Below, one piece after another: positions 10,097 through 26,172 of a DNA stretch of 56,583 nt (position 1 is the first letter of the stretch; every line of letters starts with the position of its first letter). This stretch comes from a virus (Duplodnaviria; Caudoviricetes). The DNA lies in IMG/VR virus record IMGVR_UViG_3300049182_000084, positions 1 through 56,583 of that record, one strand, 5' to 3'. The position numbers and the translations under genes were made by a program. The notes below the pieces were generated by a model. It was given only the letters and a program-made list of their open reading frames with translations, made no database searches and was not told the DNA's origin.

Positions 10097-10519
10097 ATGA
10101 CGAAGCAGAGTCGAACCATCCAGATGCCGGGTGCAGCCGCGCCCGAGGTGACACACCCCGCCCTGGCGGCCGGTGACGGCGCCGCTCAGGACGACCTGGC
10201 CGCGTTCGATGAGGACGACCTGCCGCAAGGCCCGGTGCCGGCCACCGCACAGATGACGCCCGAGCTATCGGCGCTCGTGCAGCGCATGATCGCCGAGGGC
10301 GTCGCCGCCGAACTGGCCGCAGCTAAGCACGACGCGGCTCAACCCAAGGCGCCTGCCGAACGTCTGCCGACGTGGCAGGAGGCCGCCGCCGCGGCGGAAA
10401 GGTCGGTGCGAGATGGTGTCCGCCCCCGTTCGGTCCTGACCAGCGACGGCTGGTATGTCCACCCCGAGCTGGCCCGGGTCAAGGACTCCGGCGTCGCCCG
10501 GCTGATGGTCGAGGCCTGA
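10097..10519 (+). CDS. Hypothetical late protein
   Basis: First gene after late promoter 1; GGAG upstream; C-terminal VLTSDGWYVHP. Confidence 0.75.
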   Translation: MTKQSRTIQMPGAAAPEVTHPALAAGDGAAQDDLAAFDEDDLPQGPVPATAQMTPELSALVQRMIAEGVAAELAAAKHDAAQPKAPAERLPTWQEAAAAAERSVRDGVRPRSVLTSDGWYVHPELARVKDSGVARLMVEA

Positions 10520-10523
10520 CGCC

Positions 10524-10838
10524 ATGTGCTTCACCGCCGGCCTTGCAGCACTGGGATCCCTCGCGTCCGCGGCGGCGCCGATCATCAGCGCGGTCGGCGG
10601 AACCCTGGGCATCGTCAATGCGGTGAAGGGGCTCAAGGGGCAGAAGGAAATCGCCGGCCCGAGCGCGGCGGATCAGCAGGCCGCCGTCGATGCGCGCGCC
10701 ACGCAGAGCTCGAACGCACGGCTGGCGGCGCGCAAAAGGGCGCTCGCGTCGAGCTCGCTGCTCACGGGCAGCAGCGGAAGCAGCGATGTCATGAGCAGCG
10801 GCGTCCTGCAGGGCGGTCGCGCCACCCTGGGGGGCTAG
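10524..10838 (+). CDS. Small putative virion protein
   Basis: MCFTAGLAALG...RATLGG, the MC...TLG pattern common before podovirus portals. Confidence 0.7.
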   Translation: MCFTAGLAALGSLASAAAPIISAVGGTLGIVNAVKGLKGQKEIAGPSAADQQAAVDARATQSSNARLAARKRALASSSLLTGSSGSSDVMSSGVLQGGRATLGG

Positions 10839-10842
10839 GCGT

Positions 10843-12444
10843 GTGGCAGTCGATCCCCAGAAGCTCGCCGCCCGTCTCAATGCACTGAAGGGCCAGCGCT
10901 CCACGCACGAGAACACCTGGCGCGAGTGCTTCGAGTACTCCGTCCCCATGCTGGCCAGCGGCTTCAACGGCCAGGTCCTCAACGCAGGCGAGATCCAGAC
11001 GCAGAAGGCCAAGCTGCTCGACAGCACTGCCGCTGACGCCATGCAGACAGGCGCCGACGGCTTCATGGGTGGCATCACCCCCGCGAACAGCCGCTGGTTC
11101 GGCATCGACATCGGCCAGGAGTCCACAGAGGAGCGCCGGTGGCTGGATGAGGCCGCCGACTTCATCTTTGAGAACATCCACGCCTCGAACTTCGACGCCG
11201 AAGCGTACGACGCAATGAAGTACCTGCTCGGCGCGGGCTGGTTCTGCCTCTACGAGGACGAGGCGCCGGGTGGGGGCTACTACTTCGAGAACTGGCCCAT
11301 CAGCCAGTGCTACCTCGCGAGTTCACGCCAAGGCGGACGCATCGACACCTGCTACCGTGAGTACGAGGTGACGGCTGCGACCCTGGTGGCCGAGCGCGGC
11401 CGCGACAAGGTCAGCCCGCAAGTCCGCCAGATGGTGGACAACGGCAAGCAGGACGAAATGGTCCAGATGCTCTGGGCCATCGAACCGCGCGTGGGCTACC
11501 TGCCGGGCAGCACCATCTCGACCAACCTCCCGTTCGCCTCCTGCAAGATGGAGGTGGCCACCAAGCACATCGTCAGCGAGAGCGGGTACCACGAGTTCCC
11601 GGTGATCTGCCCTCGGTGGACGCGCATCCCGGGCAGCGTCTACGCGCTGGGCCCGATGTCCGACGCGCTGCCGGATGTAAAGAGTCTCAACGAGGTCAAG
11701 CGCTGGGAGTTCGCGGCAGCCGAGACGGTCATCGCGCCGCCGCTGAAGGTCGTCGACGACGGCGTCATCAACCCGCGCCTGGTCAAGCTCGGGCCGCGCA
11801 AGGTCCTGGTGTGCGCCGACCCCGACAACATCGCGCCGCTCATCACTGGCGCCAAGGTCGAGTTCGGCCAGCTGATGGTCAGCGAGCTGCAGACCAGCGT
11901 GCGCCGCTCGCTGATGGCAGACCTGTTCGACAAGCTGCTCAACGACCCGCGGATGACCGCGACTCAGGTGCACGCGATCGTCGGCGTCTTGCGTCAGCGC
12001 ATGGGCCCGCGGTTCGGCCGACTGCAGGCCGAGTATCTGCAGCCGCTGGTCGAGCGCTCCTATGGGCTCGCCTACCGCGCCGGCATGCTGGGGCAGCCGC
12101 CGGAATCCATGCGAGACCGCGACTACACCGTCAAGTACCTGTCGCCGCTGGCGCGCGCCCAGAAGCTCGAGGACGTGTCCGCGATGCAGATGCACGAGCA
12201 GGACCTGCTCCTGCAGATGCAGGCCAATCCCACCCTGGCCGACACCTACGACTGGGACGAGGCCGCGCGCCACAAGGCCGAGCTGCGCGGCGTGCCGCTC
12301 AAGCTCATCCCCGACGCGAAGAAGGTGGCCGCCGTGCGCGACCAGCGCGCCGAGGCGCAGGCGGCAGCGCAGGAGGCCGTGGCCCAGCAGGCCCTTGCCG
12401 TGAAGGCCGGCGAGGCCGCGATCGATGCTTCGGTGCAGACATGA
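10843..12444 (+). CDS. Portal / head-tail connector (T7 gp8-like family)
   Basis: 533 aa; LLDSTA, ITPANSRWF, PRWTRIPGSVYALGP, MTATQV, YLSPLARAQK. Confidence 0.92.
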   Translation: MAVDPQKLAARLNALKGQRSTHENTWRECFEYSVPMLASGFNGQVLNAGEIQTQKAKLLDSTAADAMQTGADGFMGGITPANSRWFGIDIGQESTEERRWLDEAADFIFENIHASNFDAEAYDAMKYLLGAGWFCLYEDEAPGGGYYFENWPISQCYLASSRQGGRIDTCYREYEVTAATLVAERGRDKVSPQVRQMVDNGKQDEMVQMLWAIEPRVGYLPGSTISTNLPFASCKMEVATKHIVSESGYHEFPVICPRWTRIPGSVYALGPMSDALPDVKSLNEVKRWEFAAAETVIAPPLKVVDDGVINPRLVKLGPRKVLVCADPDNIAPLITGAKVEFGQLMVSELQTSVRRSLMADLFDKLLNDPRMTATQVHAIVGVLRQRMGPRFGRLQAEYLQPLVERSYGLAYRAGMLGQPPESMRDRDYTVKYLSPLARAQKLEDVSAMQMHEQDLLLQMQANPTLADTYDWDEAARHKAELRGVPLKLIPDAKKVAAVRDQRAEAQAAAQEAVAQQALAVKAGEAAIDASVQT

Positions 12445-13592
12445 GCGCGCGCAACCTCACCGCTGACGGATACCTGGCGCGGCAGGCCAACACCTCCCGG
12501 GTCTGGCACGACCCGGATGGGCAGCTGCGCGACGACAACGGCAACGTGTTGCTCATCACAATGAACAGCGCTGCCGTCACCATCAACGTGCCGGCGGACT
12601 ACCCAACGATCCAGGCCGCGCTCGCATCGCTTGACGGCAAGCCATTGGGAAGCCATCTGGTGACGATCCAGGTTGCGGACGGCGACTACACGTACACCAG
12701 CGCGGTAGAGGCGGGGCACCCCGACGGCGACAACATCCAGATCATCGGCAACGTCGCCAGCCCGGCAGCTTGCAAGATCACCTTCCAGAACTGCGAAGGC
12801 TTCGTCGCGTATCGCGGCAACAGTCTGCGACTGATCGACGGCTTCACTGTCGAGTCCGACCGCTGGACGTCGCACGGCGTGTGGGCCTCGACGGGGCACT
12901 CTGGATTCCGCGCGAGCCGCGGCGGCAGCCTCACCGTCGGCGGGAACGTCGTGGTCAACAAGTTCTACTACGGTGTCCAGGCGGACGGTGGCGGCAACTT
13001 GTTCTTGACGACGGGCTTCCAGTGCGCGGAGGCTGGTGACGTTGGGGTGTTCGCGTTCGATGGCGGTTCGATCGTCGCTGGAACGATCACCGTGACGCTG
13101 GCCAAGGATACCGCGAACGGTCTCGGCTTCGGAATCATGGCCGAGGACGGCGGGTCTGTGTACGCCAACGGCGCCACCTGCACGAGCAACAGCATCGCAG
13201 GCATCGCCGCGAAGTCGGGCGGCTGCGTCATCGCGAAGACATCCACGTGCAACAGCAACGGCGCCGGCGTCCTGGCCGACAGCAACGGTGTCGTCGAGTG
13301 CAACGGCACGACCTGCTCGAGCAACACGAACCAGGGGTTCCTCGCCGATCTGAACGGTTCCATTACAGCCGGCAGTTGCACGGCGAGCAGCAACGGGCAG
13401 GGCTTCATGGCGCGGCGCCGCGGGTTCATCGACGCCCGCAACGCGTCCGCGACCGGCAACACCAACGAGGGCTTCCTCGCAACGATCTGCGCCTGCATCG
13501 CCGCGGCCGGAACCACATCGACGACGAACGGCACCGCCTATAGCCCGGCCGCGAACACGCTGGGCAATGAGCAGAGCTACATCGACACCTGA
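12441..13592 (+). CDS. Right-handed beta-helix protein (spike/fibre-like, 383 aa)
   Basis: TINVPADYPTIQAAL...TIQVADGDY cap, then about 22-aa repeats of the type TCSSNTNQGFLADLNGSI. Confidence 0.75.
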   Translation: MSARNLTADGYLARQANTSRVWHDPDGQLRDDNGNVLLITMNSAAVTINVPADYPTIQAALASLDGKPLGSHLVTIQVADGDYTYTSAVEAGHPDGDNIQIIGNVASPAACKITFQNCEGFVAYRGNSLRLIDGFTVESDRWTSHGVWASTGHSGFRASRGGSLTVGGNVVVNKFYYGVQADGGGNLFLTTGFQCAEAGDVGVFAFDGGSIVAGTITVTLAKDTANGLGFGIMAEDGGSVYANGATCTSNSIAGIAAKSGGCVIAKTSTCNSNGAGVLADSNGVVECNGTTCSSNTNQGFLADLNGSITAGSCTASSNGQGFMARRRGFIDARNASATGNTNEGFLATICACIAAAGTTSTTNGTAYSPAANTLGNEQSYIDT

Positions 13593-13613
13593 TATGAACA
13601 GCAGGAGCGGGAC

Positions 13614-16190
13614 ATGCCGATCAACGCAACACTGAGCTCTGACGGGTGGCACGTTCCACCGATCACGTCCCTTGGTGGGGGCGTTCAGGTTTCTGCCGGC
13701 ACCAACATCGCGAGCACGGGCACGGCCCTGTTCTCTAACAGCAACGGCATCACGTTCGGCATGAACACCAACAACGTGGTGACCGCGAGCGTCGCGGGTA
13801 CCGTGGCGGGTGGTTCGGCGAACGTCAACCTGTCGGCCGGCACGACGTCGAACGCGTCCAGCGCCTTCACGTTCTCGAACAGCAACGGGGTGTCCTTCGG
13901 GCTCAACGCAGGGACGATCACGGCGAGCCACAACGGTCTTACGACCGCTGCACAGTCGAACCACTCCCACGGGAATCCGAGCCTCGCGCTGACCAACCTG
14001 TCCGGAACCACCGCGTCGGCGAGCAATGGCTTGACGCTCTCGCTGGCCGCTGCTGCCTTGGCCCTGTCCGCTGCCGGCGGGTCGGCCAGCGCGGGCACGA
14101 TGGTCCTGAGCGACAGCAACGGCATCAGCTTCGGCGCCAACGGCTCGACCATCACCGCCTCGCACAACGGCCTGACCACCGCGGCGCAGAGCAACCACAG
14201 TCACGGCAACCCGACCCTGGCGCTCACGAACCTGAGCGGAACGACGGCCAGCGCGAGCAACGGGCTCACACTGTCGCTATCGGCTGCGGCCCAATCGAAT
14301 CAGGTCATCAGCGCCTACGCGGTGTCGAACACCACGCAGGGAACGTCCGGCACCATCGACGCCCGCAGCCTGAGCGTGCACGGCGCCGGCGCAGCGTCCG
14401 TCGGTGTGAGCAACGGCTCGCTGGTCGTGAGCGTGCAGGCCGGCGCCCAGAGCAACCAGACGATGGGCCTGTACGGCTCCTCGCAGACGACCGGCCAATC
14501 CTCAAGCAGCACCGTCGATGCGCGCAGCCTGACGATCGCCGGCATGGGCGGCGTGTCGGTCGGCATGTCTGCCGGCTCGCTGGTGATCTCGGGCAACACC
14601 GGAGGCGGCGCTGGCGGGGCCGCGGTGTCCGCTGGCACGCAGTCGGTCAACACCGGAACGGTGGTCTGGTCGAACTCGAACGGCGTCAGCTTCGGCATGT
14701 CGGGCTCGTCGCGCGTCACGGCGAGCTTTGCGCTCAGCAACCAGGCGATCAGCGCGTTCGCGGTCTCGAACACGACGCAGTCGACATCGGGCACGGTCAA
14801 CGTGTCCGCCATGTCAATCCAGGCGAACGGCCTGGTCTCGGCAGGCATCTCGAACGGCTCCATCGTCATCTCCGCCCCCGACACGACAAGCTTCGCGCCG
14901 CTGTCCGTGGGCTTCTCGACGGGCGGCAATACGGCCGGGGATACCGGATTCGGCACCGACCGTGTGGTGTTTGTCGGCGGCGCCAACGTCACGCTGTCGG
15001 GCTCCACGAACGGCGGCTCGCAGACCATCAGCGTGATCGGTGCAGCAGCTGCGGCCGGTGTGGCCCAGGCCGGCGGCACGCAGACCGCGACGTCCGGCAC
15101 GGTGGTGTTCTCCAACTCGAACGGCATCTCGTTCGGTCTCTCGGGGTCCACCCGGATGACCGCCAGCTTCGCCCTGAGCAATCAGGTCGTCAGTGCTTAC
15201 GCCGTGAGCAACACGACGCAGAGCACAACCGGCACAGTCAACGTGTCGGCGATGTCCTTCCACGGCGCCGGCGGCGTATCAGTGGGCGTCTCAAACGGCT
15301 CGGTGGTCATTTCCGGTGGTGCCGCGGCAGGCGGCTACTCCGCAGGCTTGTCGAACATCGGCAACACGGCAGGCGATACGGGCGTCGTCACCGGCCGGCT
15401 GGTGCTGGCCGGCCTGAACGCCACGCTGTCGGGCTCGACCAACGGCGGCAGCATGACGGCCACCCTGAGTGTGCCGGCCACCTCCAGCCTGTCGGGCACT
15501 GGGCTGCTGTCGATCGCGACGAACGGCAGCACGATCAGCATGGGCGTGCCGGGCGACACGATGTCACGCTACGGCTGGCCGCCCGCGCAGGCGATGAACA
15601 TCAGTTCCAGCGCCAACGCGAACAGCATCTACTCGCTGCAGTATGTGAGCGTGCAGGCGCCGATTGCCTTCACGCGCATGGACGTGCCGCTGCTGGTCTC
15701 GCTGAACACTGCAGCGCAGTCGAACACCGCGGCCGTGGCGTTGTCGGCCATGCTGGTGCTGTACTCGCGCACTGGCTCTACGATGAACCCGATCGTGGGC
15801 GCCAGCGCCTCGTCGACCTTCTCGTGGGCATCGAACTCGTCGAACTTTGACCGCGTGAGCGGCGGGCGCAACCTGAGCTTCGGCATCGCCTCCACGCTGA
15901 CGCCGGGCGAGTATTACGCCGGCCTGTACCTGAGCACGACCTCGGGCATCAGCAGCGGCGCCGCGACGACTGCGCTGGATGCCACCTTCTCCGTGATGTT
16001 CGGCAGCACCTTCAGCGCGAGCGTCATCGGCGCCTTCAACGTCGCCACGGCGAACGGCCAGGGGCCGCTCATGCTGGGCGTGCTGAGCTCCGTTCCGACG
16101 AACACCTCGCAGTCGGTGCAGTCGAGCCAGTTCACCGTGACCGGCACGGCGGTGCGAGCCAACGTTCCGCTGCTGTTCCGCAACTACTGA
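13614..16190 (+). CDS. Long Ser/Thr/Gly/Ala-rich repetitive fibre-like protein (858 aa)
   Basis: Repeats FSNSNG(I/V)SFG, SNTTQxTxGTxxxxxxSxxGxGxxSVGxSNGS and GNTAGDTG; non-repetitive C-terminal region of about 200 aa; no Lys or Cys and one Glu by my reading. Confidence 0.8.
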   Translation: MPINATLSSDGWHVPPITSLGGGVQVSAGTNIASTGTALFSNSNGITFGMNTNNVVTASVAGTVAGGSANVNLSAGTTSNASSAFTFSNSNGVSFGLNAGTITASHNGLTTAAQSNHSHGNPSLALTNLSGTTASASNGLTLSLAAAALALSAAGGSASAGTMVLSDSNGISFGANGSTITASHNGLTTAAQSNHSHGNPTLALTNLSGTTASASNGLTLSLSAAAQSNQVISAYAVSNTTQGTSGTIDARSLSVHGAGAASVGVSNGSLVVSVQAGAQSNQTMGLYGSSQTTGQSSSSTVDARSLTIAGMGGVSVGMSAGSLVISGNTGGGAGGAAVSAGTQSVNTGTVVWSNSNGVSFGMSGSSRVTASFALSNQAISAFAVSNTTQSTSGTVNVSAMSIQANGLVSAGISNGSIVISAPDTTSFAPLSVGFSTGGNTAGDTGFGTDRVVFVGGANVTLSGSTNGGSQTISVIGAAAAAGVAQAGGTQTATSGTVVFSNSNGISFGLSGSTRMTASFALSNQVVSAYAVSNTTQSTTGTVNVSAMSFHGAGGVSVGVSNGSVVISGGAAAGGYSAGLSNIGNTAGDTGVVTGRLVLAGLNATLSGSTNGGSMTATLSVPATSSLSGTGLLSIATNGSTISMGVPGDTMSRYGWPPAQAMNISSSANANSIYSLQYVSVQAPIAFTRMDVPLLVSLNTAAQSNTAAVALSAMLVLYSRTGSTMNPIVGASASSTFSWASNSSNFDRVSGGRNLSFGIASTLTPGEYYAGLYLSTTSGISSGAATTALDATFSVMFGSTFSASVIGAFNVATANGQGPLMLGVLSSVPTNTSQSVQSSQFTVTGTAVRANVPLLFRNY

Positions 16191-16200
16191 TCAGAGCGCG

Positions 16201-19200
16201 ATGGCTCTGTGCGTCATCAACGGGCGGGTGGTCAAGCGCGGCGGCGGCCTGCTGTCGCGTGGTGGAGGTGGCGGTGGTGGTGGCGCTGCCCTGACTTCAT
16301 TCACCCTCAAGAGCGCCGCAGCCAGCGGCAGCCAGCCGTTCTCCATCGGCTTCACGTTGGCGAAGGGCGCGGCTACCAACGTCACCACCGACCTTCCAGG
16401 CGGCGCCTATCAAGCCAAGGTGATGACGCAGTGGAGCGACGGCAGCGCGAACCATGTGGTCGTCAGCGGCGACTACAGCGCGACGCAGAACGCCACGCTG
16501 ACGGTGAACGTCACCAGCGGCACGCCGCCGACCGGAACGGCGCTCGCTCACGCCGACATTGTGTCAGCAGCGCCGACATCGGTGGTTGACTGCGGCGCCT
16601 TCGGCTCGGCCAGCCTTGCCACTCGCCTTGCCGCAGGCGCGCCTGATGTTGTGCTGCTGGCTGGGCATCGAATGATCGAGGCGTGGTATCGCGCCGACAT
16701 CGGAAGCGACATCCATTGCACTTGGTACGTGAAGTTGTGGGCCAGTGGCCGCATGCACGTCGATGTGATGGTGGAGAACGGCTTCCTAGACAACGGCTCG
16801 GGCGCGCTTTGGACCAACACGACGCGCTCGTACACAGCCAACATCACCATTGGCGGCTCCACCGTCCTGAATACCGCGGTTACGCACTACGGCCACCAGC
16901 GCTACTACGCGCACGGCTGGATCGGCGGCGATCCGCAGATGACGCGGCTGCACGACACGGGCGACATCATGGCGTCGAAGATGACGCCGAACTACCCGTA
17001 TGGGCCGGTTGACAGCGCATCTCTTGACGCACTGGACCGCTCGTATGTGGTGCTGGACAAGGGTCCGCACGAGGAGAACATGGGCGGCACCGGTTCTGCG
17101 CCAGCCATTGGCTTGTTGCCGAACTGGTGCGCCGCGTACCTCACAACGCCGGATGCGCGCTCGTTCGATGCAGTCATCGTTGGATCGCTGTCCGTCAACT
17201 CGTATCCGATCAGTTGGAGAACGAAGACCACAAAGGAGGCGGCGCCGCTGCTGTCTGGGACGGGCAACTTCGGGAACTGGACCGCCGACGGTCCGAATCA
17301 GGGCGGCAATACGGTTCAGGGTGCCGGCTCGCTGATCTGGGATCAGGCTCACCACCCGTGCGAAGGGTACCTAGCGTACCTAATCACGGGCGACGGCATC
17401 CACCTTGAAACGCTCATCATGCAGGCGGGTCTGTGCTTCCTGCAGCGCCCGTCGTCACATGGTACCGGCACCGCGCGCCTTCTGAGCGACCAGATCCGCG
17501 GCTACGCGTGGTCGCTGCGCACGATCTGCCTGTACGGCGCGATCACGCCGACGGCAATGAAGGGGTCGGGCACGCCGGCTCACCAGTTCCGCACCCTCAT
17601 CGAGAACAACTACGCATCGCTGAAGACATCGCTACTCAGCGGCGACACGAAGGCATGGAGTGGGCTTGGGTTCGTCAACGACTACGGCGGCAACGGCTCC
17701 CAGGACGGATGGGACTACCCGGCCGACACCGTCGCCCCATACACGGGCTCTATACCACCATGGCAAGGCGACTTCTTTGTGGCCGTCAACGGCTTCGTCT
17801 CTGAGGTTGAGCCGTGCGACAGCACGACGGATTTGATCCTCGTGCGCAACCGGATGTACCGGTGGACGATCGGGCGCCTTGGTGCGTCTGGACGATCGAG
17901 TGAATACGACTTCACGCGGGCGGCGAGCTACGGCCTGAAGGCGGCCACTGACGGCACTGGCGGGACGTGGTATCAGGGGTTCGGGAAGTTGTTCGAGGAG
18001 AGCTACGGCGCTCTGAACACGACCGCAACGAACACGCTGCAGGGTACATCCGGCTCTGCTCCATCGACGCCGAACGGCTACTGGGGCAACCTGACGCCTG
18101 CCATTGCTTACGCGGTGGATCACAAGGCGCCAGGAGCGCGGGCAGCTTACCGTCGCCTGACCGGTGCCACGAACTGGTCAACCGTCACCGGCACGTTCAC
18201 GAACAACCCGGTGTGGGGCGTCGCCCCGCGCAATGCGCAGTTCACGCCTAGCACCTGGAGCCTGCCGGCTGCCGGCCAATCGGTGCTCATCGGCAGCAAC
18301 ACGCCGAACAGCGTTCGACCCAGCGCGTACACGTCGGGACAGTTCTCCCAGGCGACGTTTGGCAGCTTCTCCAGCGGCGTATTCAACCCGTGGTACAGCC
18401 GGACAGGCGCGTACGAAATCTCCAACACCGGCGGCCACAACAACCTGTACTTCCAGGGCTCGGTCATCTTCGACCTGGAGCAAGCGACGCCGGCCTGGGC
18501 ACTACAGGACAACGCCAACGGGGTTGCCTATCAACCCGGACCGGTCGGCGTTTCGGCCACCAACGGATCGCCGTACTACGAGTACACCGGCACGCAAATG
18601 CCGCTCGCGGGGCACACCTACGCCTCGATGATCTCGATTCAGCAGGGCAACAAGGGTTCGCTGCTGTGGGTGACGCGGGGAGCGACAGCGAACGAGTCGG
18701 TGGCCGCTCCGACCGTCCACGTCATGGATGCCGAGACTGGCCTCTGGTCGCGCATGGCGAGCGTCTCACTCGCCGACCACGCGATGGTTGAAGGCTCTGG
18801 CGCCTACGACCCGAATACGCACCGCTACTACGTTTCGAACAGCCAGTTCTGGAGCAACAACTTTGTCGCGTACCTGCGCGGCTCGGACAACACGGCGCAG
18901 ACCTACTCCCTGAGCGGCTTCCCGCCGAGCGGGACGAACTACACGAAGATGTTCCTGTTCCCGGAGCGGCGGCTGATGCTGTGGGTCGACGCCGCAGGGC
19001 TCGTGTTTGGCTTGGATCTGACGCAGGCTCCTGGCGCCACCAACATCGTGCAGCTGACCACGTCTGGCGCATTCGCATCCAACAACGGCCAGTCGCAGTG
19101 GCGCTGGGACATGGGGAAAGGCAAGTTCGTCCAAAAGCCCGGATGGACTGGCGACGTGGTCAACACGCTCACGCCCCCGAACGACCGATCGCTTGGCACC

Positions 19201-19377
19201 GGCGGGACATGGGTCAAGGGCTCCGAGACTATCGGCGGCTCCGGCCTGCCAGATGGCATCCGCGGCCCAGCCGATGGTGTCGGGCAGTACATGCAGAACG
19301 AGTACGTCGAGGAAATCGACGCGCACATCTGGGTGTCCGACGACGCGAACCAAGTCGCCATCTGGAGGATGCCGTGA
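16201..19377 (+). CDS. Large putative carbohydrate-active or binding protein (1058 aa)
   Basis: Short N-terminal motif, poly-Gly linker, PFSIGFTLAKG...QWSDGS (resembles the PcRGLX/YetA-type N-terminal barrel), aromatic-rich helical middle, beta-propeller-like C-terminus. Fold calls tentative. Confidence 0.6.
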   Translation: MALCVINGRVVKRGGGLLSRGGGGGGGGAALTSFTLKSAAASGSQPFSIGFTLAKGAATNVTTDLPGGAYQAKVMTQWSDGSANHVVVSGDYSATQNATLTVNVTSGTPPTGTALAHADIVSAAPTSVVDCGAFGSASLATRLAAGAPDVVLLAGHRMIEAWYRADIGSDIHCTWYVKLWASGRMHVDVMVENGFLDNGSGALWTNTTRSYTANITIGGSTVLNTAVTHYGHQRYYAHGWIGGDPQMTRLHDTGDIMASKMTPNYPYGPVDSASLDALDRSYVVLDKGPHEENMGGTGSAPAIGLLPNWCAAYLTTPDARSFDAVIVGSLSVNSYPISWRTKTTKEAAPLLSGTGNFGNWTADGPNQGGNTVQGAGSLIWDQAHHPCEGYLAYLITGDGIHLETLIMQAGLCFLQRPSSHGTGTARLLSDQIRGYAWSLRTICLYGAITPTAMKGSGTPAHQFRTLIENNYASLKTSLLSGDTKAWSGLGFVNDYGGNGSQDGWDYPADTVAPYTGSIPPWQGDFFVAVNGFVSEVEPCDSTTDLILVRNRMYRWTIGRLGASGRSSEYDFTRAASYGLKAATDGTGGTWYQGFGKLFEESYGALNTTATNTLQGTSGSAPSTPNGYWGNLTPAIAYAVDHKAPGARAAYRRLTGATNWSTVTGTFTNNPVWGVAPRNAQFTPSTWSLPAAGQSVLIGSNTPNSVRPSAYTSGQFSQATFGSFSSGVFNPWYSRTGAYEISNTGGHNNLYFQGSVIFDLEQATPAWALQDNANGVAYQPGPVGVSATNGSPYYEYTGTQMPLAGHTYASMISIQQGNKGSLLWVTRGATANESVAAPTVHVMDAETGLWSRMASVSLADHAMVEGSGAYDPNTHRYYVSNSQFWSNNFVAYLRGSDNTAQTYSLSGFPPSGTNYTKMFLFPERRLMLWVDAAGLVFGLDLTQAPGATNIVQLTTSGAFASNNGQSQWRWDMGKGKFVQKPGWTGDVVNTLTPPNDRSLGTGGTWVKGSETIGGSGLPDGIRGPADGVGQYMQNEYVEEIDAHIWVSDDANQVAIWRMP

Positions 19378-19763
19378 TCCTGTCGGCTGCCTCATCGCTG
19401 GCCCAAGGGCTCGACCACTGCAATCGCTGCGGAGAGTGCTGCCGCGAGCCGTGTTCGCTCGGGGATGGTGACGTGAAACGGTTGGCGCGGCACTTCGGCA
19501 TGCAGCCGATCGACTTCGCCAGGGCGCACCTGGACGTGCGCCAGCGGCCGGATGGTGTGCTCATCGCCCGGCCGCACTTCGGCCAGGACGGCTTCTGCCA
19601 CTTCCACCGCGAAGGCGCCTGCACCGTGCACGAGGTGAAGCCGGCCGGCGGGCGCGACTTCGAATGCTGGAATCCGCGCACAACCGCCCCGGGTCGCGAG
19701 CGCATGTTCTTCATCGCGCTGCGCGAGTTGCAGCAGAAACTGGAGGCCCGACGTGGCACGTGA
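19374..19763 (+). CDS. YkgJ-family CxxCxxCC (Zn/Fe-S cluster) protein
   Basis: HCNRCGECC...FCHFHREGACTVHEVKPAGGRDFECW; GTGA overlap. Confidence 0.85.
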   Translation: MILSAASSLAQGLDHCNRCGECCREPCSLGDGDVKRLARHFGMQPIDFARAHLDVRQRPDGVLIARPHFGQDGFCHFHREGACTVHEVKPAGGRDFECWNPRTTAPGRERMFFIALRELQQKLEARRGT

Positions 19764-20400
19764 TCCAAAAGTGACCGACGACGGCACCGGGACGATGGCC
19801 GACTACACCCAGACGAATCCGAACTGGGGGTCCATCGGCAAGTCGGCCGGGCAGTTCACGGGCGGCGGCCTGGGCGCCAACGTGGCCACGGCCCGCTACG
19901 CGGGTGCGACGGCGATTTCGGTCGACAAGCACTACGCCAAGCTGAAGATGACGGGGCTGGCGTTCAACGGGTCCAACCGGCGGCAAGGCGTCATCGTTGG
20001 GTCGTCGACCGGCATCGACGCGGCCCGCGACCACTATGCCGCCTTCTTTGAGGACGATGCGGCGAGCGGCGGCACGCACACATGGCGCGTGGTCAAGATG
20101 GTCAACGATGTGGAGACGGAACTGGCATCGGGCTCGCGCGTGGCCAGCAACGGCGACACGATTTCGCTTGAGTTCGACGGGTCAAGCGGCACCAGCGCCG
20201 TCCTGCGGGCCTACTACAACGACTCGACGCAGCTGGGCACCACCATCACCGACAACACCAGCCCACTCGTGTCCGGATCGCTCGGCCCCATGCTCGGCCA
20301 GGACCAGGTCGCGGACGACCTCGAGTTGGGCGATATCGTGGCTGACGCGCCTCCGCCGCCACCTCCATCTATCGCCACGGCAGCGTGGCTGCGCGCCTGA
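19753..20400 (+). CDS. Beta-sandwich (lectin-like) putative structural protein
   Basis: Gly/Thr/Ser-rich beta-strand pattern, C-terminal PPPPPP linker and short tail. Confidence 0.55.
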   Translation: MARDPKVTDDGTGTMADYTQTNPNWGSIGKSAGQFTGGGLGANVATARYAGATAISVDKHYAKLKMTGLAFNGSNRRQGVIVGSSTGIDAARDHYAAFFEDDAASGGTHTWRVVKMVNDVETELASGSRVASNGDTISLEFDGSSGTSAVLRAYYNDSTQLGTTITDNTSPLVSGSLGPMLGQDQVADDLELGDIVADAPPPPPPSIATAAWLRA

Positions 20401-20438
20401 ACCACCACCCCGATACCTCCAACCCATCGGACCAGACC

Positions 20439-21176
20439 ATGAAGCCTCAACTCGTCGTCCAGGACCTCAGCGGCGTACACAATGCCGACCTCACCAAGAC
20501 CAGCGCGCGCCTGATGCGCGGCGGCAGCTGGAAGCGGCAGCGCGTGATCGTCATCCTGCCGGCCGCTGATCAGGTGCCCGCGAAGTGCGCGCTTTCGTGG
20601 TGGAACCTCGCGTTTCCGCCGAACCAGGGTGTCGTGCGCATCCTTGCGCAAGGTATGGAGGTAGGCGAGGCGTACTCGACAGCCATCGAGCAGATCCTGG
20701 CGAACCCGGACCTGTCGACCTGGGAGTACATCCTCACGATCGAGCACGACAACGCGCCGCCGCCCGACGGCGTCATCAGGCTCATCCAGGACATGGAGGA
20801 GCACCCCGAATACGCCGTGATCGGCGGCCTGTACTTCACCAAGGGACCCGATGGCGTGGCCCAGATGTGGGGCGACCCGCGCGATCCGATCCCAAACTTC
20901 CGCCCGCAGGTGCCGATCGCAGAGACGGTGCAGGAGGTGTGCGGCACCGGCATGGGCTTCAACCTCTGGCGCCTGTCGATGTTCAAGGACGAGAAACTGC
21001 GCCGGCCGTGGTTCAAGACGCTCAACGGCAGCGAGGGCCAAGGCATCGGCACGCAAGACCTCTACTTCGCCGCGGACGCGCGCAAGCACGGCTATCGCTT
21101 CGCGATAGACACGCGCGTGAAGGTCGGCCACCACGACCTGCGCGGCGACTTCGGCCCGGCCGACACGATGTACTGA
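20439..21176 (+). CDS. GT-A fold (GT2-like) glycosyltransferase
   Basis: EYILTIEHDNAPPPDG (DxD-like EHD), GTGMGFNLW, TQDLYF...GYRFAIDTRVKVGHHD. Confidence 0.75.
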   Translation: MKPQLVVQDLSGVHNADLTKTSARLMRGGSWKRQRVIVILPAADQVPAKCALSWWNLAFPPNQGVVRILAQGMEVGEAYSTAIEQILANPDLSTWEYILTIEHDNAPPPDGVIRLIQDMEEHPEYAVIGGLYFTKGPDGVAQMWGDPRDPIPNFRPQVPIAETVQEVCGTGMGFNLWRLSMFKDEKLRRPWFKTLNGSEGQGIGTQDLYFAADARKHGYRFAIDTRVKVGHHDLRGDFGPADTMY

Positions 21177-21205
21177 CACCCCACCAACCCGACGGAGATG
21201 ATCAC

Positions 21206-21820
21206 ATGGCTAAGGATTCGGCTGTACGCGTGGATGAGCTATCGAGCGGGGCAGCTGTCCCTGTGGAGCGGCCGCCGCTGCGACTCGATATCGGCTGCGG
21301 CAAGAACAAGAAGGCAGGCTTCACTGGCGTCGACAGCCTCGCGCTCGACGGCGTCGATGTCGTAGCCGACTTGCGCCAGCCGTGGCCGTTCGACGACAAC
21401 TCAGTGGAGGAGGCGAACTGCTCGCACTTCCTCGAGCACCTGACGAACTTCGACGGCAAGTGGGAGCGCGTGCACTTCTTCAACGAACTGCACCGCGTGC
21501 TCAAGCCAGGCGCGGCGTGCGCGCTGGTGATCCCGCACTGGGCGTCGAATCGCTACTACGGCGACCCCACGCACAAGGAGCCGTTCAGCGAGATGGGCTT
21601 CTACTACCTGTCGAAGGAGTGGCGTGCCACGCAGGCCCCGCACACGGATGCGGCGATCACAGGCAACCCGGCCCTGTACTCCTGCGACTTCGACGCGACC
21701 TGGGGCTATTCGCTGCATCCGACGCTGCTGGTGCGCAACCTCGAGTACCAGCAGCATGCGATGACCTTCTGGAAGGAGGCATGCCAGGACCTTGTTGCAA
21801 CGTTGAAGAAAAAGGGCTGA
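21206..21820 (+). CDS. Class I SAM-dependent methyltransferase (Methyltransf_11-like)
   Basis: LRLDIGCG, DLRQPWPFDDNSVEEANCSHFLEHL, ELHRVLKPGA, DPTH. Confidence 0.9.
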   Translation: MAKDSAVRVDELSSGAAVPVERPPLRLDIGCGKNKKAGFTGVDSLALDGVDVVADLRQPWPFDDNSVEEANCSHFLEHLTNFDGKWERVHFFNELHRVLKPGAACALVIPHWASNRYYGDPTHKEPFSEMGFYYLSKEWRATQAPHTDAAITGNPALYSCDFDATWGYSLHPTLLVRNLEYQQHAMTFWKEACQDLVATLKKKG

Positions 21821-21849
21821 CCGACCCGCCCCGGTGGAGGTGACGAGCC

Positions 21850-22995
21850 ATGCTGTACGTCTACAACAACCGGGTGGTGCGCAATGGCGCGGGTCGCATG
21901 TACTCGCGCAACGACGCGCTTGAAGTGGCAGCTGGGCAGGTGCTGCTCATGCCGCTGCCGGCTGGTGAGCTGGGGACGATCTACATCCAGCGCAACGGCG
22001 TGGACATCACCGGCGCAGTGAGCGCGCCGAACAGCAACTACTACCTGTACACGGTGGTTGCGGAGGATGCCGGGGCGGAACTGAAGGTGCGCGTCGAGAA
22101 CGCATCTCAGGACACGACCCCACCGCGCCGGCACGCGATCGGCGTTCGCATCGCCGCGCCGAACAAGATCGTCATCACCTACAACAAGGTGCTGTCGCCG
22201 CTGACGATCGCGGCCGCGCAGTTCACGCTCGGCGGCACGATGGCTACGGCCAAGACGGTCACGGCCGCCGCGGTGGTGGACAACACCGTGGAGGTCACGG
22301 TCTCGAGCAACTTCGTTCCGGGCGATGCGCCGACGCTGGCTTACACCCAGTCGGGCACGGACTCGCTTCGGGTGAAGGACTGGGCCGGCAACCTGGCGCC
22401 GAGCTTCTCGGCGGTGAGCGTGTTCAACGAGTTCCCGGTGCCGGCCACGGCCGCGACGCTGGTGACCACGTTCACCGTCCTGACAAGCGGTGGCGGTGGG
22501 TTTGTGTACTCCGGCAGCGGCGGCACCACTCAATGCCACCCGCTGACACAGGCGACGTTCGCCAACTCGGCGCACCAGGCCAAGCTGGAAACCTCCGGTT
22601 GGGTGGAGATGCAGGTTACCGACACCGATGCCGCGGTCCGGTCCATCGCGCTGAAGATGAACACATCTGCGGGGCAGACGCTCAACGAGATGGATCACTC
22701 GGTGCGAGTCACCAACGGCACGGCACGCCCGTACCAGGACGGCACGGCGGTCGGCTCGCTGTACACGTTCTCGAGCCCGTCATCGCTTTGCCGCGTGCGG
22801 ATTCGCCGCGACATGCCGTCGGGCGAGGTGCACTTCGACACGTCGGAGGACGGCGGCATCACCTGGGAGCTCCGGCACACCTGGACGCTGGTGTCGGATC
22901 CTGAGGTGTACATGCACCCATGGTGCAACAACCCAAGCACCACGGTGGCCGCGATCGGCTGCGCGCTTCAAGGTTTCGTCTCTCGGGGGTTCTGA
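21850..22995 (+). CDS. Ig-like / SwmB-repeat adhesin-like protein
   Basis: DTTPP...IVITYNKVL...TLAYTQ...VKDWAGNLAPSF resembles the SwmB repeat; C-terminal beta domain. Confidence 0.65.
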   Translation: MLYVYNNRVVRNGAGRMYSRNDALEVAAGQVLLMPLPAGELGTIYIQRNGVDITGAVSAPNSNYYLYTVVAEDAGAELKVRVENASQDTTPPRRHAIGVRIAAPNKIVITYNKVLSPLTIAAAQFTLGGTMATAKTVTAAAVVDNTVEVTVSSNFVPGDAPTLAYTQSGTDSLRVKDWAGNLAPSFSAVSVFNEFPVPATAATLVTTFTVLTSGGGGFVYSGSGGTTQCHPLTQATFANSAHQAKLETSGWVEMQVTDTDAAVRSIALKMNTSAGQTLNEMDHSVRVTNGTARPYQDGTAVGSLYTFSSPSSLCRVRIRRDMPSGEVHFDTSEDGGITWELRHTWTLVSDPEVYMHPWCNNPSTTVAAIGCALQGFVSRGF

Positions 22996-24116
22996 TGCGA
23001 CTGCTTCGCACCATCTTGCTGCTGGCGTTCGCCAGCGCCGCCATCGGCTTCACGGTCTACGTGCCGACGGTCATGTTCAACGGCATCCCGCTGCGGCTCA
23101 TCAACAGCTCGCCGCCGAACTACCCGCCATCGGTGGCTGCAGGCGTCTTCGAGATGTGGCCATCGCTGCAGTTCGAGGTGAACGGAGATGCGCTGCCCGC
23201 ACCCAACTACGGCTTCACCAGCCTGCGCAAGCGCGACAACACTGGCGGCGCGGTGCAGCCGAACAGCACTCCGGACGGTGGCGCCTTTCGCATCGTGTGC
23301 GCCACGAGCCACCTGGGCTTCTTCGACCCCATCGTCTACCCCCCAAGCGGGGCGACGAGCTTCCCGAAGAAGAGCCACCTCCACAACTTCTTCGGCAACA
23401 GCGATATCTCTGCGACGACAGCAACGACGACGCAACTCGCGACGGTTGGGCGCAGCAGCTGCGTGGGCGGCATCGCGAACCGGAGCGGCTACTGGGTACC
23501 TGCGGTCATCGACACGACGACGGGCTTCCCGGTCATCCCCTACGCCAACATCGTCTACTACAAGAACGAGAGCGACTATCGGCGCGCCAACCTCACAGCA
23601 GTGACGGTGCCGCCGGCCGACCTGCGCATCATCGCTGGCAACCCGGCGAACACATCGACGACGCTGGGCAACACGTACCGCTGGGAGTGCCCGCTCGGCG
23701 CCAACTTCTCGGCCACGATACCGGGCGCCGGATGCGCCAATGGATCAGACGTGCAGTTGATCGTGTTCTTCCCGCAGTGCTGGGATGGCGTGAACCTCGA
23801 TTCAGCGAACCACCAGAGCCACATGGCCTACGAGAACCCGACGACAGGTTGTCCTGGCACGCATCCGGTGATGATCCCGCAGATCAGCTTCAACATCCGG
23901 TACAAGGTCAGCGCCAGCGCAAGGCCAGAGAACTGGCGCCTAGCCTCCGACACCTACGCGCTCGGCTACGCCGCTGGCGGCCTGAGCGCCCATGGCGACT
24001 GGTGGAACGGCTGGAACAACGGGGTGTTGACCCAGGTGGTGGAGGGCTGTCTGCACGCCTCGCTGGACTGCCATGCCCACCTGCTCGGGCTTACCCCCAA
24101 TGAGACGCTGTACTGA
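22995..24116 (+). CDS. DUF1996-domain protein with N-terminal hydrophobic segment
   Basis: FRIVC..SH...DPIVYP, SHLHNFFGN, NRSGYWVP, FPQCWDGVNLDSANHQSHMAY, CPGTHPV, HGDWWNGW. Confidence 0.88.
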   Translation: MRLLRTILLLAFASAAIGFTVYVPTVMFNGIPLRLINSSPPNYPPSVAAGVFEMWPSLQFEVNGDALPAPNYGFTSLRKRDNTGGAVQPNSTPDGGAFRIVCATSHLGFFDPIVYPPSGATSFPKKSHLHNFFGNSDISATTATTTQLATVGRSSCVGGIANRSGYWVPAVIDTTTGFPVIPYANIVYYKNESDYRRANLTAVTVPPADLRIIAGNPANTSTTLGNTYRWECPLGANFSATIPGAGCANGSDVQLIVFFPQCWDGVNLDSANHQSHMAYENPTTGCPGTHPVMIPQISFNIRYKVSASARPENWRLASDTYALGYAAGGLSAHGDWWNGWNNGVLTQVVEGCLHASLDCHAHLLGLTPNETLY

Positions 24117-24186
24117 GCTCGCACTCGTGCTGCTGGCCGTGCTGGCGCCGTTCGTGGCGGTGGTGGCCTATCGCTACGAGCGGCAG

Positions 24187-24876
24187 CTACTCGACTTCAA
24201 GGCGGAGATCGCGGCGACGAGCGCGGTGTGCCAGAAGCAGGAGGCCGGCCAGCAGCAGGGCGTAGGTCCCTGGTTCCGGGGCGGCGCTGGCGCGGATGTC
24301 CACCAGCGACTGAGCCTTGCGGGTGAGGGTGCCGGACGCCTCGTCGGCGCCGGTCTCGAAGTCGAACGACACCAGCCCGGAGCCGTTGACGAAGTCGGAG
24401 AAGGTCTGGGCACCCACGGTCAGCCAGGCGCCGATTTCGGCCACGCCGCCAAGCGCATTGGCGTCGAGCTCGAACGTGACGCGGGTGTGCGGCGCAACGA
24501 CGGCAATCCATGAGTCCTGGATGAACGATCGCGAGTACGGCTTGCCGTTCGACGTGCTGTGCGTGGTGGCCGACAGCGATTCGCCCCAGGTGAAGAAGCT
24601 CAGCCACGTCCCCGAGGTGCCGGGATCGAAGAAGCCGACCTGTTCCGAGGACCAGAACCCACCGCCGTTCGGATCGGCGACCCACGACAGGTTCCCGTGG
24701 AACCCGCCTTGTCCGGTGAGGGTGACGCCGGCCGTGATGCCGTCGGCTTGGTCCGTGTCGACGATGGTGAGCCGAACAGGGCCGACTGATGCGGTAGCGG
24801 GAGGATTTGCTGCAGAAACTGCAAACGCGCACGCCAGCGCGCTCGCGCCGACGGCCAAGCACCAGTGGTTGCCCAT
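24187..24876 (-). CDS. PEP-CTERM sorting-domain protein (antisense moron)
   Basis: GAGGAGG SD, signal peptide, C-terminal APEPGTYALLLAGLLLLAHRARRR. Confidence 0.9.
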   Translation of the reverse strand: MGNHWCLAVGASALACAFAVSAANPPATASVGPVRLTIVDTDQADGITAGVTLTGQGGFHGNLSWVADPNGGGFWSSEQVGFFDPGTSGTWLSFFTWGESLSATTHSTSNGKPYSRSFIQDSWIAVVAPHTRVTFELDANALGGVAEIGAWLTVGAQTFSDFVNGSGLVSFDFETGADEASGTLTRKAQSLVDIRASAAPEPGTYALLLAGLLLLAHRARRRDLRLEVE

Positions 24877-24919
24877 GGCTCGCCTCCTCGCATAACCGTT
24901 TGTCGTTGGAGGCGCAGGG

Positions 24920-24934
24920 GCATTCGGCGTGCCT
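24920..24934 (-). promoter_or_regulatory. Putative sigma54 (-24/-12) promoter for the PEP-CTERM gene
   Basis: Minus strand AGGCACG-CCGA-ATGC, i.e. GG-N10-GC, about 45 nt upstream of the ATG. Confidence 0.6.
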
Positions 24935-24942
24935 GCCGCCGA

Positions 24943-24981
24943 TTGATGCGGATTCGCATCGGGCGAGGGGCCAACACTGCG
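24943..24981 (+). promoter_or_regulatory. Putative late promoter 2
   Basis: TTGATGCG-GATT-CGCATC-N12-AACACT-GCG. Confidence 0.75.
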
Positions 24982-24987
24982 CCCCTG

Positions 24988-25251
24988 ATGAGCCAACCCA
25001 TCGACCGAGCAGCCCTGGCGGCCATGTTCCGCGACGTGTTCGAGGCCGACCGCCGCGGCGCTGCGATCCTGGAACACCTGGTGCAGCGCTTCGGCAGCAC
25101 GAAGGTCCACACTGACGGCGGCATCGACGCGGTCCTGAAGACCTACCGATCGGCCGCGCACCGCGAGATCCTGGACTACGTGCTGCGGCTCGTGAACGAG
25201 GGGAACGGCATCTCGGATTCCAACCCCGAAGGAGAAGGCGATGCCCTCTGA
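24988..25251 (+). CDS. Bbp19-like small head-assembly protein
   Basis: FRDVFEADRRGAAILEHLVQRF...TYRSAAHREILDYVL; directly before the scaffold. Confidence 0.75.
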   Translation: MSQPIDRAALAAMFRDVFEADRRGAAILEHLVQRFGSTKVHTDGGIDAVLKTYRSAAHREILDYVLRLVNEGNGISDSNPEGEGDAL

Positions 25252-26137
25252 AGCCCCCGCGGCGCCTGCCGCACCCGCTGCTGCCCCGACATCCGCGGCC
25301 CCCGCGGCGCCGAACCCGCCTGCGCCGGCCGCACCAGCTCCGAGCCCAGCCGAGTCGCCGGCACCGATCGAAAGCCTCATCCACGGATCGCCGCCGCCGG
25401 CACCCGCCGCCCCTGCGCCTGCCGCGCCGGCTCCCGCACCAGGCGCTGACGACCCATTCGCCGCCTTCGCCGAGAAGGTGCCCGAGAAGTTCCACGTCAA
25501 GGCCGGGGACAAGCTCGACATGCCGGCGTCCATCGCGAAAGCACTCGAACACCGTGAGCACCTGGAGAAGCGGCTGGGCGCCGGCGATCTGCCGCCCAAG
25601 AAAGTGGACGAGTACCAGTGGACCCCGCCGACCGAGATGCAGGGGTTCGAGATCGACCAGGAGCGCACATCCGCCTTCAAGGAGCAGGCGCTTGCGCGCG
25701 GCATCACCACCGAGCAGTTCAAGTGGATGATGGACTCCTACGTCGCGGCCGTGCCGGACCTGATGCAGGGCGCGGCGCGCCTGTCAGCCAACCAGGCGCG
25801 CGCCGAGCTCCAGAAGGTCTGGACGCAGCCGGGCGACCTCGAGGTCGGTATCGGCAACGCCGAAAGAGCGCTCCGGCAACTGCCGCCCGACTTGCTGGAC
25901 TCGTCGCGCGAGTACGGCACGAACCCGGTGTTCCTGCGCATGCTCGCGCACTTCGGCGCCCAGACGCGCGAGGACACGCCGCCGCCGAGCCCAGCTGCTC
26001 CGAACGCCGGCGCCGACGAGATCAAGCAGCTCGAGGCGAGCAAGGCGTACCTGGACCCGAAGCACCCGGATCACAAGGCCGTCAGCGCCAAGGTTGCCGG
26101 GTACTACCAGCGAGTGCACGGCAACGCTCCCATTTGA
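25241..26137 (+). CDS. Capsid scaffolding protein
   Basis: Pro/Ala-rich N-terminus, VPEKF, C-terminal AYLDPKHPDHKAVSAKV; precedes the capsid gene. Confidence 0.8.
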   Translation: MPSEAPAAPAAPAAAPTSAAPAAPNPPAPAAPAPSPAESPAPIESLIHGSPPPAPAAPAPAAPAPAPGADDPFAAFAEKVPEKFHVKAGDKLDMPASIAKALEHREHLEKRLGAGDLPPKKVDEYQWTPPTEMQGFEIDQERTSAFKEQALARGITTEQFKWMMDSYVAAVPDLMQGAARLSANQARAELQKVWTQPGDLEVGIGNAERALRQLPPDLLDSSREYGTNPVFLRMLAHFGAQTREDTPPPSPAAPNAGADEIKQLEASKAYLDPKHPDHKAVSAKVAGYYQRVHGNAPI

Positions 26138-26172
26138 TGCGGAAACGCATCGCGGCGCAATTTGACACTGCG
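26134..26172 (+). promoter_or_regulatory. Putative late promoter 3 (capsid)
   Basis: TTGATGCG-GAAA-CGCATC-N12-GACACT-GCG; contains the scaffold stop codon. Confidence 0.75.

Follow-up and report, generated by a model that had tools for sequence, protein, structure and literature searches.

A mosaic insertion at the portal/scaffold junction

The window, i.e. the whole stretch of DNA analysed here, is an entire IMG/VR virus record (IMGVR_UViG_3300049182_000084) of 56,583 bp, linear and rated 100% complete. Its late genes occupy the + strand between ~2.6 and 43.3 kb, and its early genes lie beyond on the - strand. The subject of this work is an 11.7-kb block on the + strand at 12441-24116, between the portal gene and the scaffold position, which holds nine co-oriented open reading frames (ORFs; g1 to g9) with a third-position GC content of 0.82-0.89, joined by overlaps or separated by gaps of 10-29 nt. 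An earlier note, made from the sequence alone, had described nine packed, co-oriented genes with the first coupled to the portal stop; ORFs, GC content and junctions agree with this, and the start codon of g1 overlaps the stop codon of the portal gene (ATGA, 12441-12444). In this T7-type podovirus, the block forms an insertion of mosaic structure between portal and scaffold and contains two mobile host-surface modules. Module A consists of a fibre (g2), a transferase (g6) and a methyltransferase (g7). In the window it is interleaved with module B, which comprises g3, g4, g5, g8, g9 and a PEP-CTERM gene on the opposite strand. Since g3, the YkgJ-type gene g4, g5, g8 and the DUF1996 gene g9 form this second mobile module, the former view of all nine genes as one appendage and glycosylation system had to be given up.

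The head-tail module of the window is of the T7 type, with a gp8-type portal (PF12236), tail tubular proteins A and B (phrog_394, phrog_376) and a PF22530 terminase. The upstream border of the insertion is the portal gene (10843..12444, + strand; PF12236 Head-tail_con with 365 bits, phrog_332), and the downstream border is a small Bbp19-like gene (24865..25251, + strand; phrog_5977 at 1.9e-8, PF25181 at 19.7 bits and below the cut-off). The following gene (25241..26137, + strand) matches phrog_3742, a family without a function name, at 1.9e-44 and is named scaffold because of its position and its Ala/Pro-rich N-terminus. The closest deposited capsids are those of the Yersinia phages YeP4-6 (47%), followed by those of Acinetobacter, Alcaligenes, Pelagibacter HTVC010P-type and Ralstonia podoviruses. 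These deposited relatives have genomes of 34-43 kb, compared to 56.6 kb here.

In Yersinia phage YeP5, the gene order is portal, small gene, scaffold, capsid, tubular A and tubular B, with no gene between portal and small gene. Likewise, the portal gene is followed directly by the small gene in the viral contig L003, and contig L002 carries a single unrelated gene of 863 amino acids (aa) at this site. The portal of the window is 47% identical to that of YeP5, 62% to that of L002 and 45% to that of L003; for the gene at the scaffold position, the identity is 56% to L002 and 37% to YeP5. Because YeP5 and L003 carry no gene and L002 only one gene at this site, the block is an insertion. The earlier statement, made for BPP-1/epsilon15-type podoviruses, that the Bbp19-like and scaffold genes normally come closely after the portal gene is true for YeP5 and L003 and hence within this lineage. 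A possible homology between g1 and the 863-aa gene of L002 at the same site was rejected (best E-value 0.32). A scan for promoters and terminators from 10500 to 26500 gave no more sites than shuffled sequences did, and no near-identical DNA was found in deposited phages. The window also illustrates that the portal/scaffold junction of a T7-type phage is able to accept nearly 12 kb of host-surface cargo.

A cassette of fibre, transferase and methyltransferase

The fibre gene g2 (13614..16190, + strand) encodes 858 aa with a Ser/Thr/Asn/Gly-rich shaft. Its composition of 29% Ser+Thr, 8% Asn, 14% Gly and 4% charged residues, together with five [FWL]S[ND]SNG[IV][ST]FG motifs, bears out the former description as a Ser/Thr-rich SNSNG fibre. 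No tandem repeats were found in g2 at the DNA level, and a direct sequence search of the PDB with g2 and g3 gave no meaningful match. In several loci, tblastn matches span residues ~22-855. The part conserved across the family is the last ~210 residues, and members range from ~240 aa, i.e. knob only, to 2399 aa. This family core, the neck and knob (last 240 aa; 15468..16187, + strand), was characterised by family alignment, an AlphaFold2 (AF2) model and a profile search. Y99, S113 and G204 are near-invariant residues of the knob. Among 1.84 billion proteins, the knob profile retrieved 2973 cluster representatives with an E-value of up to 1e-3, of which 1002 reach 1e-30 or lower, and the match reaches the C-terminal end in 150 of 150 listed representatives. 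No model of the fibre family exists in Pfam or PHROGs.

The AF2 model of the knob is a beta-sandwich. Its nearest PDB folds, all with E>1e-3, are jelly-roll capsid proteins, a Bdellovibrio fibre tip, a cyanopodophage needle and TNF-like lectins. In BFVD, 15 matches at E<=1e-3 were obtained, mostly C-terminal parts of collagen-repeat fibres along with a virion protein and a tip attachment protein; one is a probable family member at 1.8e-8, and the other best matches range from 5e-5 to 1e-3 with low TM-scores. A further match to a tail fibre protein was found at 2.7e-3. When neck and knob were modelled as a homotrimer, the interface score was 0.71 compared to 0.00 for the best control, with a predicted local distance difference test (pLDDT) score of 65-68 and at least 80% of contacts shared between runs. 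In the calibration, 20 of 30 solved self-pairs and 1 of 23 single chains attained this mark, a guide that is rough for the present case of an own alignment and three copies. The model supports, but does not prove, a trimeric state of the knob-bearing fibre.

The fibre N-termini in many loci share a motif ending in (V/I)RPSDWNS(A/G)H (L017, L023, L029, L041, L044, L052-L054, L058, L059, L066, L072-L076, L081 and L082), which in g2 is present only in the degenerate form 'SSDGWH'. This N-terminus could be the end that attaches to the virion.

The gene g6 (20385..21176, + strand, with a possible start at ATG 20439) encodes a GT-A-like glycosyltransferase that matches phrog_1574 at 8.4e-10, phrog_12406 'glycosyltransferase' at 8.8e-6 and, weakly, PF00535. 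Its family shows 61 invariant columns in 34 sequences, including E-x-D-N and T-Q-D-L, and the family profile aligns with SpsA (1h7l_A) around the DxD region at a weak E-value of 0.016. The gene g7 (21206..21820, + strand) encodes a class I S-adenosylmethionine (SAM) methyltransferase of 204 aa and matches PF08241 (Methyltransf_11) with 29.2 bits against a cut-off of 21.2, as well as phrog_6636, in agreement with its earlier assignment. In its family, the LDxGCG SAM motif is conserved and the profile matches the methyltransferase 3dli_A at 3.9e-6. The copies of both enzymes in the window retain every invariant column of their families.

Together, the fibre, the transferase and the methyltransferase form a three-gene cassette that is widespread and confined to phages. 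When viral contigs were scanned with g6, 100 stretches encoding relatives were obtained, and 80 loci with 58-73% identity were kept. In 79 of these transferase-picked loci a g7 relative lies beside the transferase, and the contig of the exception stops ~400 nt past the transferase. An ORF of the g2 family is located upstream of the transferase in 67 loci, and 10 of the 13 loci without it have less than 2.5 kb of sequence upstream. In 44 of the 67 loci, fibre and transferase adjoin each other with less than 150 nt in between, and in another 12 they are separated by 1.4-3.5 kb of other genes. No relatives of g1, g3, g4, g5, g8 and g9 were found in the 80 loci.

For the reverse direction, 80 listed loci were selected with the back-translated fibre motif FSNSNG[VIM]SFGL regardless of the enzymes. 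Both enzymes are present in 22 of the 24 loci with at least 5 kb of downstream sequence and in 35 of the 43 with at least 3 kb. A comparison of contig names showed that 8 of the 80 contigs are shared with the transferase-picked set, and after their removal both enzymes are found in 18 of 20 and 30 of 37 loci, respectively. The co-occurrence that the earlier note had proposed to examine thus exists for fibre, transferase and methyltransferase in both sampling directions and does not extend to the remaining six genes. The genetic distances of the trio are modestly correlated as well, with Mantel r values of 0.34 for transferase and methyltransferase and 0.22 each for transferase and knob and for methyltransferase and knob (values attained in 0, 1 and 3 of 2000 permutations, respectively). 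This fits a joint inheritance, and it is no proof of co-evolution, since kin share history.

The cassette is set among virion genes. Representatives of the neighbouring families include portals of three PHROG families, scaffold, capsid proteins and the large terminase. An annotated portal, capsid, scaffold or terminase family was present in 29 of 79 loci, and in 22 of these 29 it lies at most three ORFs from the cassette. One lineage has the order portal, knob-only fibre, transferase, methyltransferase, scaffold and capsid, which is the same slot as in the window. In the other 51 loci, 134 neighbouring ORFs were scanned, and named matches were taken from the 25 most frequent of 116 families. 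These matches comprise nine portals, eight tail fibre and four tail proteins, as well as head closure, protease, small terminase and virion structural proteins, and in addition one HNH endonuclease and two beta-1,4-glycosyltransferases. Because of the co-occurrence in both directions and the location inside virion-gene modules, a functional link between the fibre and the two enzymes is well supported.

The joint travel of the trio in many unrelated phages suggests, but is no proof of, a sugar-coating of a virion fibre, and the chances that the fibre is the acceptor of the transferase are about even. If it is, the knob is a better acceptor candidate than the hydroxyl-rich repeats, because it is the only part conserved wherever the enzymes occur. 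Alternatively, the enzymes could modify another virion protein such as capsid, portal or tail, as in mycobacteriophages, and the fibre would then only be a neighbour in the late operon. The head genes close to the cassette in 22 of the 29 loci with such annotation would fit this, as would the mycobacteriophage glycans on capsid and tail-tube subunits described in the parts consulted of one paper (PMC12619734). Between loci, however, four portal PHROG families and several capsid families differ, and among the structural proteins the fibre knob alone remains with the enzymes, which makes a different virion target improbable.

In a search of 185,579 species, each represented by one genome, only four relatives of the transferase were found, all on contigs of 7.9-54.6 kb from metagenome-assembled genomes (MAGs). 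Two archaeal-virus records match the transferase at 24%. In a Manatee Spring podovirus the cassette follows the capsid gene, and three extra annotated glycosyltransferase genes and a second methyltransferase adjoin it. In L084 (GenBank MW202524.1, locus 1488-5648), from an uncultured podovirus, three such glycosyltransferase genes are located between the capsid gene and the fibre cassette. Nine loci (L007, L008, L014, L020, L033, L044, L051, L056 and L064) carry, next to the methyltransferase ORF of 185 aa, another and longer one (330-370 aa) of the same family. In two or three loci, including L064:8238-9924 and L078:3525-4340, ORFs intervening between fibre and transferase open with long Gly runs (MATVE.LVVAGGGG...).

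Module B, g1 and the PEP-CTERM gene

Viral contigs carrying module B were fetched with g3 and g9. The gene order g3, g5-like, g8, g9 and PEP-CTERM is preserved in L089-L093, L173 and L175 with identities of 36-97%, and g4 was seen in L089 only; a smaller set of g3-like, g8 and g9 is present in L169-L172, L174 and L176. On the module B contigs, neither a fibre nor a transferase nor a methyltransferase was found, and no other gene of the window matched there. In L089 there is no space for the enzymes, since g8 directly adjoins the g5-like gene. Of the contigs, one belongs to a siphovirus that encodes a phrog_21 portal, a capsid fused to a protease, a tape measure and a major tail protein; a second belongs to a different podovirus, in which the set lies after a long fibre and before a lysozyme-like gene. 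The g8-g9 pair is located downstream of a tail fibre in L177. According to these gene arrangements, module B behaves like a host-recognition set that is passed between phages probably sharing a host. In addition, a distant relative of the window (L179:4091-7760; terminase 49%, tailspike 39%) carries a DUF1996 gene (43-44%) ~0.8 kb after its tailspike gene.

The largest gene of module B, g3 (16201..19377, + strand), encodes 1058 aa and is probably a polysaccharide-degrading enzyme, an assignment made with moderate confidence from 27 homologues, an AF2 model and Foldseek. The model (pLDDT 73.6; predicted TM-score (pTM) 0.76) consists of a disordered Gly-rich N-terminus, a confident beta-sandwich at ~30-250, a mostly helical, toroid-like part at ~250-680 and a less confident beta-rich C-terminus that matches beta-propellers. 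The sole full-length Foldseek match is the PL26 exo-rhamnogalacturonan lyase 5xq3_A, with an E-value of 1.1e-3 over 909 columns, a TM-score of 0.22 and a root-mean-square deviation of 16.6. A weak lead from the Atlas is PcRGLX_1st, present in 15% of one cluster with a score of 0.75. Several of the 27 homologues have signal-like N-termini, as read by eye, and others consist of the core fused to more domains.

The next gene, g4 (19374..19763, + strand), encodes a YkgJ-type CxxCxxCC protein of 129 aa as previously assigned (PF03692 with 26.7 bits, above the cut-off of 23), and a copy with 82% identity adjoins g3 in L089. YkgJ was also considered as a member of the cassette of module A and rejected, since the nine CxxCxxCC motif matches in 84 loci all looked by eye like wrong-frame ORFs. 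The gene g5 (19753..20400, + strand; 215 aa, or 201 aa from ATG 19795) has no match in Pfam, PHROGs or NCBIfam, and jackhmmer found no relatives in the transferase-picked loci. It was placed in module B by the position of its relatives, which occur at 36-37% identity in the same place in L089-L093, L173, L175 and L176; its former description as lectin-like could not be confirmed.

Similarly, the SwmB/Ig-like character once attributed to g8 (21850..22995, + strand), a beta-rich protein of 381 aa, was not recovered beyond sub-threshold Ig-like and carbohydrate-binding module leads from the Atlas. Five relatives of g8 were found in the large protein search, and copies with 49-90% identity lie directly upstream of DUF1996 in 15 loci. 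The DUF1996 protein g9 (22995..24116, + strand; 373 aa) matches PF09362 over its full length (135.4 bits, positions 1-237 of 237), and relatives occur in 15 viral loci. Its N-terminus is hydrophobic and signal-like, with a mean Kyte-Doolittle (KD) value of 1.99, a feature that the earlier note had missed. The family assignment as a DUF1996 surface protein is thus correct as regards the domain, whereas the secretion-type N-terminus means that membership in the virion is not required. Among the papers listed by the search, the only functional one on DUF1996 deals with fungal vacuolar proteins (PMC4738358).

A gene overlooked by the earlier note lies between g9 and the small Bbp19-like gene on the - strand (24187..24876) and is therefore transcribed against the late operon. 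It encodes a secreted PEP-CTERM protein of 229 aa (PF07589 with 24.1 bits, cut-off 20.7) with a signal-like N-terminus and a third-position GC content of 0.86-0.90. The PEP-CTERM signal at residues 198-222 comprises a C-terminal PEP motif, a hydrophobic helix and an Arg cluster: PEPGTYALLLAGLLLLAHRARRR. Copies with 82-86% identity follow DUF1996 in L089-L093, L173 and L175, which indicates that the gene travels with module B, and its signal points to a host with an exosortase system. An overlapping + strand ORF at 24317-24895 has no family match and was rejected as a gene; it is regarded as a shadow frame because of the high third-position GC content of the PEP-CTERM frame.

Upstream of both modules, g1 (12441..13592, + strand) encodes a right-handed beta-helix protein of the pectate-lyase superfamily with 383 aa. 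The earlier assignment as a beta-helix protein is not reached by the window gene itself, for which Beta_helix scores 20.3 bits and hence below the cut-off of 25.9, and is carried by the homologues, of which 7 of the 17 listed contain PF13229 and one more contains PF12708 (pectate lyase superfamily). From these domains, g1 is a candidate for a further glycan-active protein.

The mosaic structure raises the possibility that the genes of the block have no joint function beyond that of the trio, and that the portal/scaffold junction is merely a recombination hot spot for unrelated cargo whose genes act separately. The relatives with zero, zero and one gene at this site are in line with this, as are the separate histories of the two or more modules that make up the mosaic, and the gene on the opposite strand. 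An N-terminal docking motif (M..V.x.G..hh...GG) that might have linked g3 and g8 to the proteins following the fibre in six loci, and thereby to the fibre, was rejected as insignificant: with a hidden Markov model of the motif, g3 ranked 15th of 1552 at an E-value of 1.2, g8 was outside the top 30, and a loose regular expression matched 69 of 1386 ORFs. Such a hot spot may fit the block as a whole, but it cannot explain the recurrence of the trio in both sampling directions, and as a full account it is considered quite unlikely.

A proposed role in fibre modification

The pairing of enzymes and substrate, the chemistry and the site on the virion are what we infer here, as follows. In the cytoplasm during infection, the soluble transferase g6 would use a nucleotide sugar of the host to modify the fibre, and the knob would be the likeliest target as the sole part that is always present. 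The methyltransferase g7 would then cap the attached sugar by methylation, or methylate the protein, and the modified trimeric fibre would afterwards be mounted on the virion. The products of g1 and g3 would cut host polysaccharide. More speculatively, g9 and the PEP-CTERM protein could act in the envelope of the infected cell, off the virion.

Several observations weigh against this scenario. The knob model is of moderate confidence only (pLDDT 60, pTM 0.60), and its fold has no match in the PDB at E<=1e-3. For g6, the PF00535 match (Glycos_transf_2; 17.7 bits, profile positions 78-159 only) is below the Pfam cut-off of 23.3, and the earlier assignment as a GT-A glycosyltransferase is therefore backed by the phrog_12406 and phrog_1574 matches and not by Pfam. 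Moreover, g6 has E-H-D-N where SpsA has DxD; this alignment is weak, and E, D and N are invariant in the 34 sequences, with E and D at the alignment columns E102 and D104. The cassette of the window is split by 4.2 kb, the widest gap seen, and one knob-bearing fibre (L254) with 9.6 kb of downstream sequence has neither enzyme. Module B occurs elsewhere without the enzymes. The neighbours of the cassette comprise tail-fibre as well as head genes, which would fit a place at either the head or the tail. The cassette was found in no cultured phage, and a close copy of the transferase only in three uncultured GenBank 'Manatee Spring' records (59%). The strongest objection to the fibre as acceptor is the unequal conservation: the mean pairwise identity is 68% for the transferase, 48% for the methyltransferase and 23% for the knob; given the difference between transferase and knob, a conserved acceptor other than the fibre would fit too.

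Such an acceptor could be a glycan of the host envelope, i.e. lipopolysaccharide, capsule or extracellular polysaccharide, or its precursor. Its alteration could, for example, block superinfection or release progeny from debris, and the enzymes would then adjoin the fibre by way of a shared receptor. Apart from the far stronger conservation of the transferase, this explanation would account for the secreted DUF1996 and PEP-CTERM proteins in the same island, and serotype-changing phage glycosyltransferases are described in the parts consulted of a published paper (PMC12619734). On the other hand, the transferase is nearly absent from bacteria, as the four MAG contigs illustrate, it lies beside the fibre inside virion-gene modules and away from lysogeny genes, and the trio has been retained in unrelated backbones, among them four portal families. 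Gtr-type seroconverting glycosylation is bactoprenol-linked and relies on a membrane-anchored transferase. Such an anchor is the difference to g6: neither g6 nor g7 has a transmembrane-like segment or a signal, and g6 has no hydrophobic 19-residue window above a mean KD value of 1.22. No membrane protein is encoded between g5 and g8, with no search by name made for the partner flippase. Modification of the host envelope is accordingly regarded as unlikely.

The proposed modification of the fibre can be compared with known systems. Freeman et al. reportedly described virion glycosylation in actinobacteriophages and mycobacteriophages (Cell Host Microbe, 2023). What the window shares with them is a phage transferase that is encoded among virion genes, here with portal, scaffold, capsid, head closure and tail neighbours, and presumably acts on a structural protein within the infected cell. 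In Che8 and other actinobacteriophages, the glycans are located on capsid and tail-tube subunits according to the parts consulted of two papers (PMC12619734, PMC13445384), whereas the only constant partner in the system described here is the fibre knob. Further differences are that the transferase of the window belongs to an apparently separate, tightly conserved family (phrog_1574) that is always paired with a methyltransferase, and that the cassette occurs in diverse, mostly uncultured phage backbones.

The predicted fibre resembles other trimeric fibres with C-terminal jelly-roll or TNF-like knobs, such as the collagen-repeat fibres of uncultured phages in BFVD, the Bdellovibrio Bd1399 fibre tip and the cyanopodophage Pan3 needle, in its low-charge beta-rich shaft, its beta-sandwich knob and its predicted trimer. 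It differs from these in that the g2 family lacks a PDB match at the threshold used and a Pfam or PHROG model, and that some members consist of a knob of ~240 aa only. Depolymerase and tailspike modules are known to be exchanged between phages of one host. The beta-helix of g1 and the lyase-like fold and propeller modelled for g3 appear similar to such glycan-degrading virion enzymes, and otherwise unrelated contigs carry module B with up to 97% identity. Unlike these modules, the module of the window lies between portal and scaffold instead of the tail-fibre end and carries DUF1996, YkgJ and PEP-CTERM genes.

Taken further, the trio might represent a general, phage-confined self-glycosylation system, in which two dedicated enzymes would coat a knob-tipped virion fibre with sugar and methylate it, with a knob family of ~3,000 clusters in unrelated podovirus and siphovirus backbones, probably of Gram-negative hosts. 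In the window it would be fused with a depolymerase-bearing module into a composite, portal-adjacent and possibly head-mounted appendage. This extended reading is a tentative one, and we consider it possible rather than probable.

A literature search of full texts found no paper describing the trio of fibre, transferase and methyltransferase. As far as these searches show, post-translational virion modification has been measured only in a few actinobacteriophages. If the trio is a dedicated fibre glycosylation system, virion glycosylation would be common in uncultured phages, with a bearing on receptor binding, on resistance to proteases and immune defence, and on the design of phage fibres. 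The knob family and the small, very conserved transferase lend themselves to expression in E. coli as well-defined targets, which makes the idea testable without a cultured phage.

Outside the block, the window encodes the separate conventional tailspike that had been located at 40189-42249, and a T7 gp17-type N-terminus (phrog_1640) was found in it. The T7-type large terminase gene (PF22530, 38515-40158) lies between the internal virion protein genes and this tailspike gene. Directly after tail tubular protein B, a GNAT acetyltransferase is encoded at 30513-30956 (PF00583, 26.4 bits), with a relative of 35% identity in the same place in YeP5. It may be another protein-modifying enzyme within the virion module.

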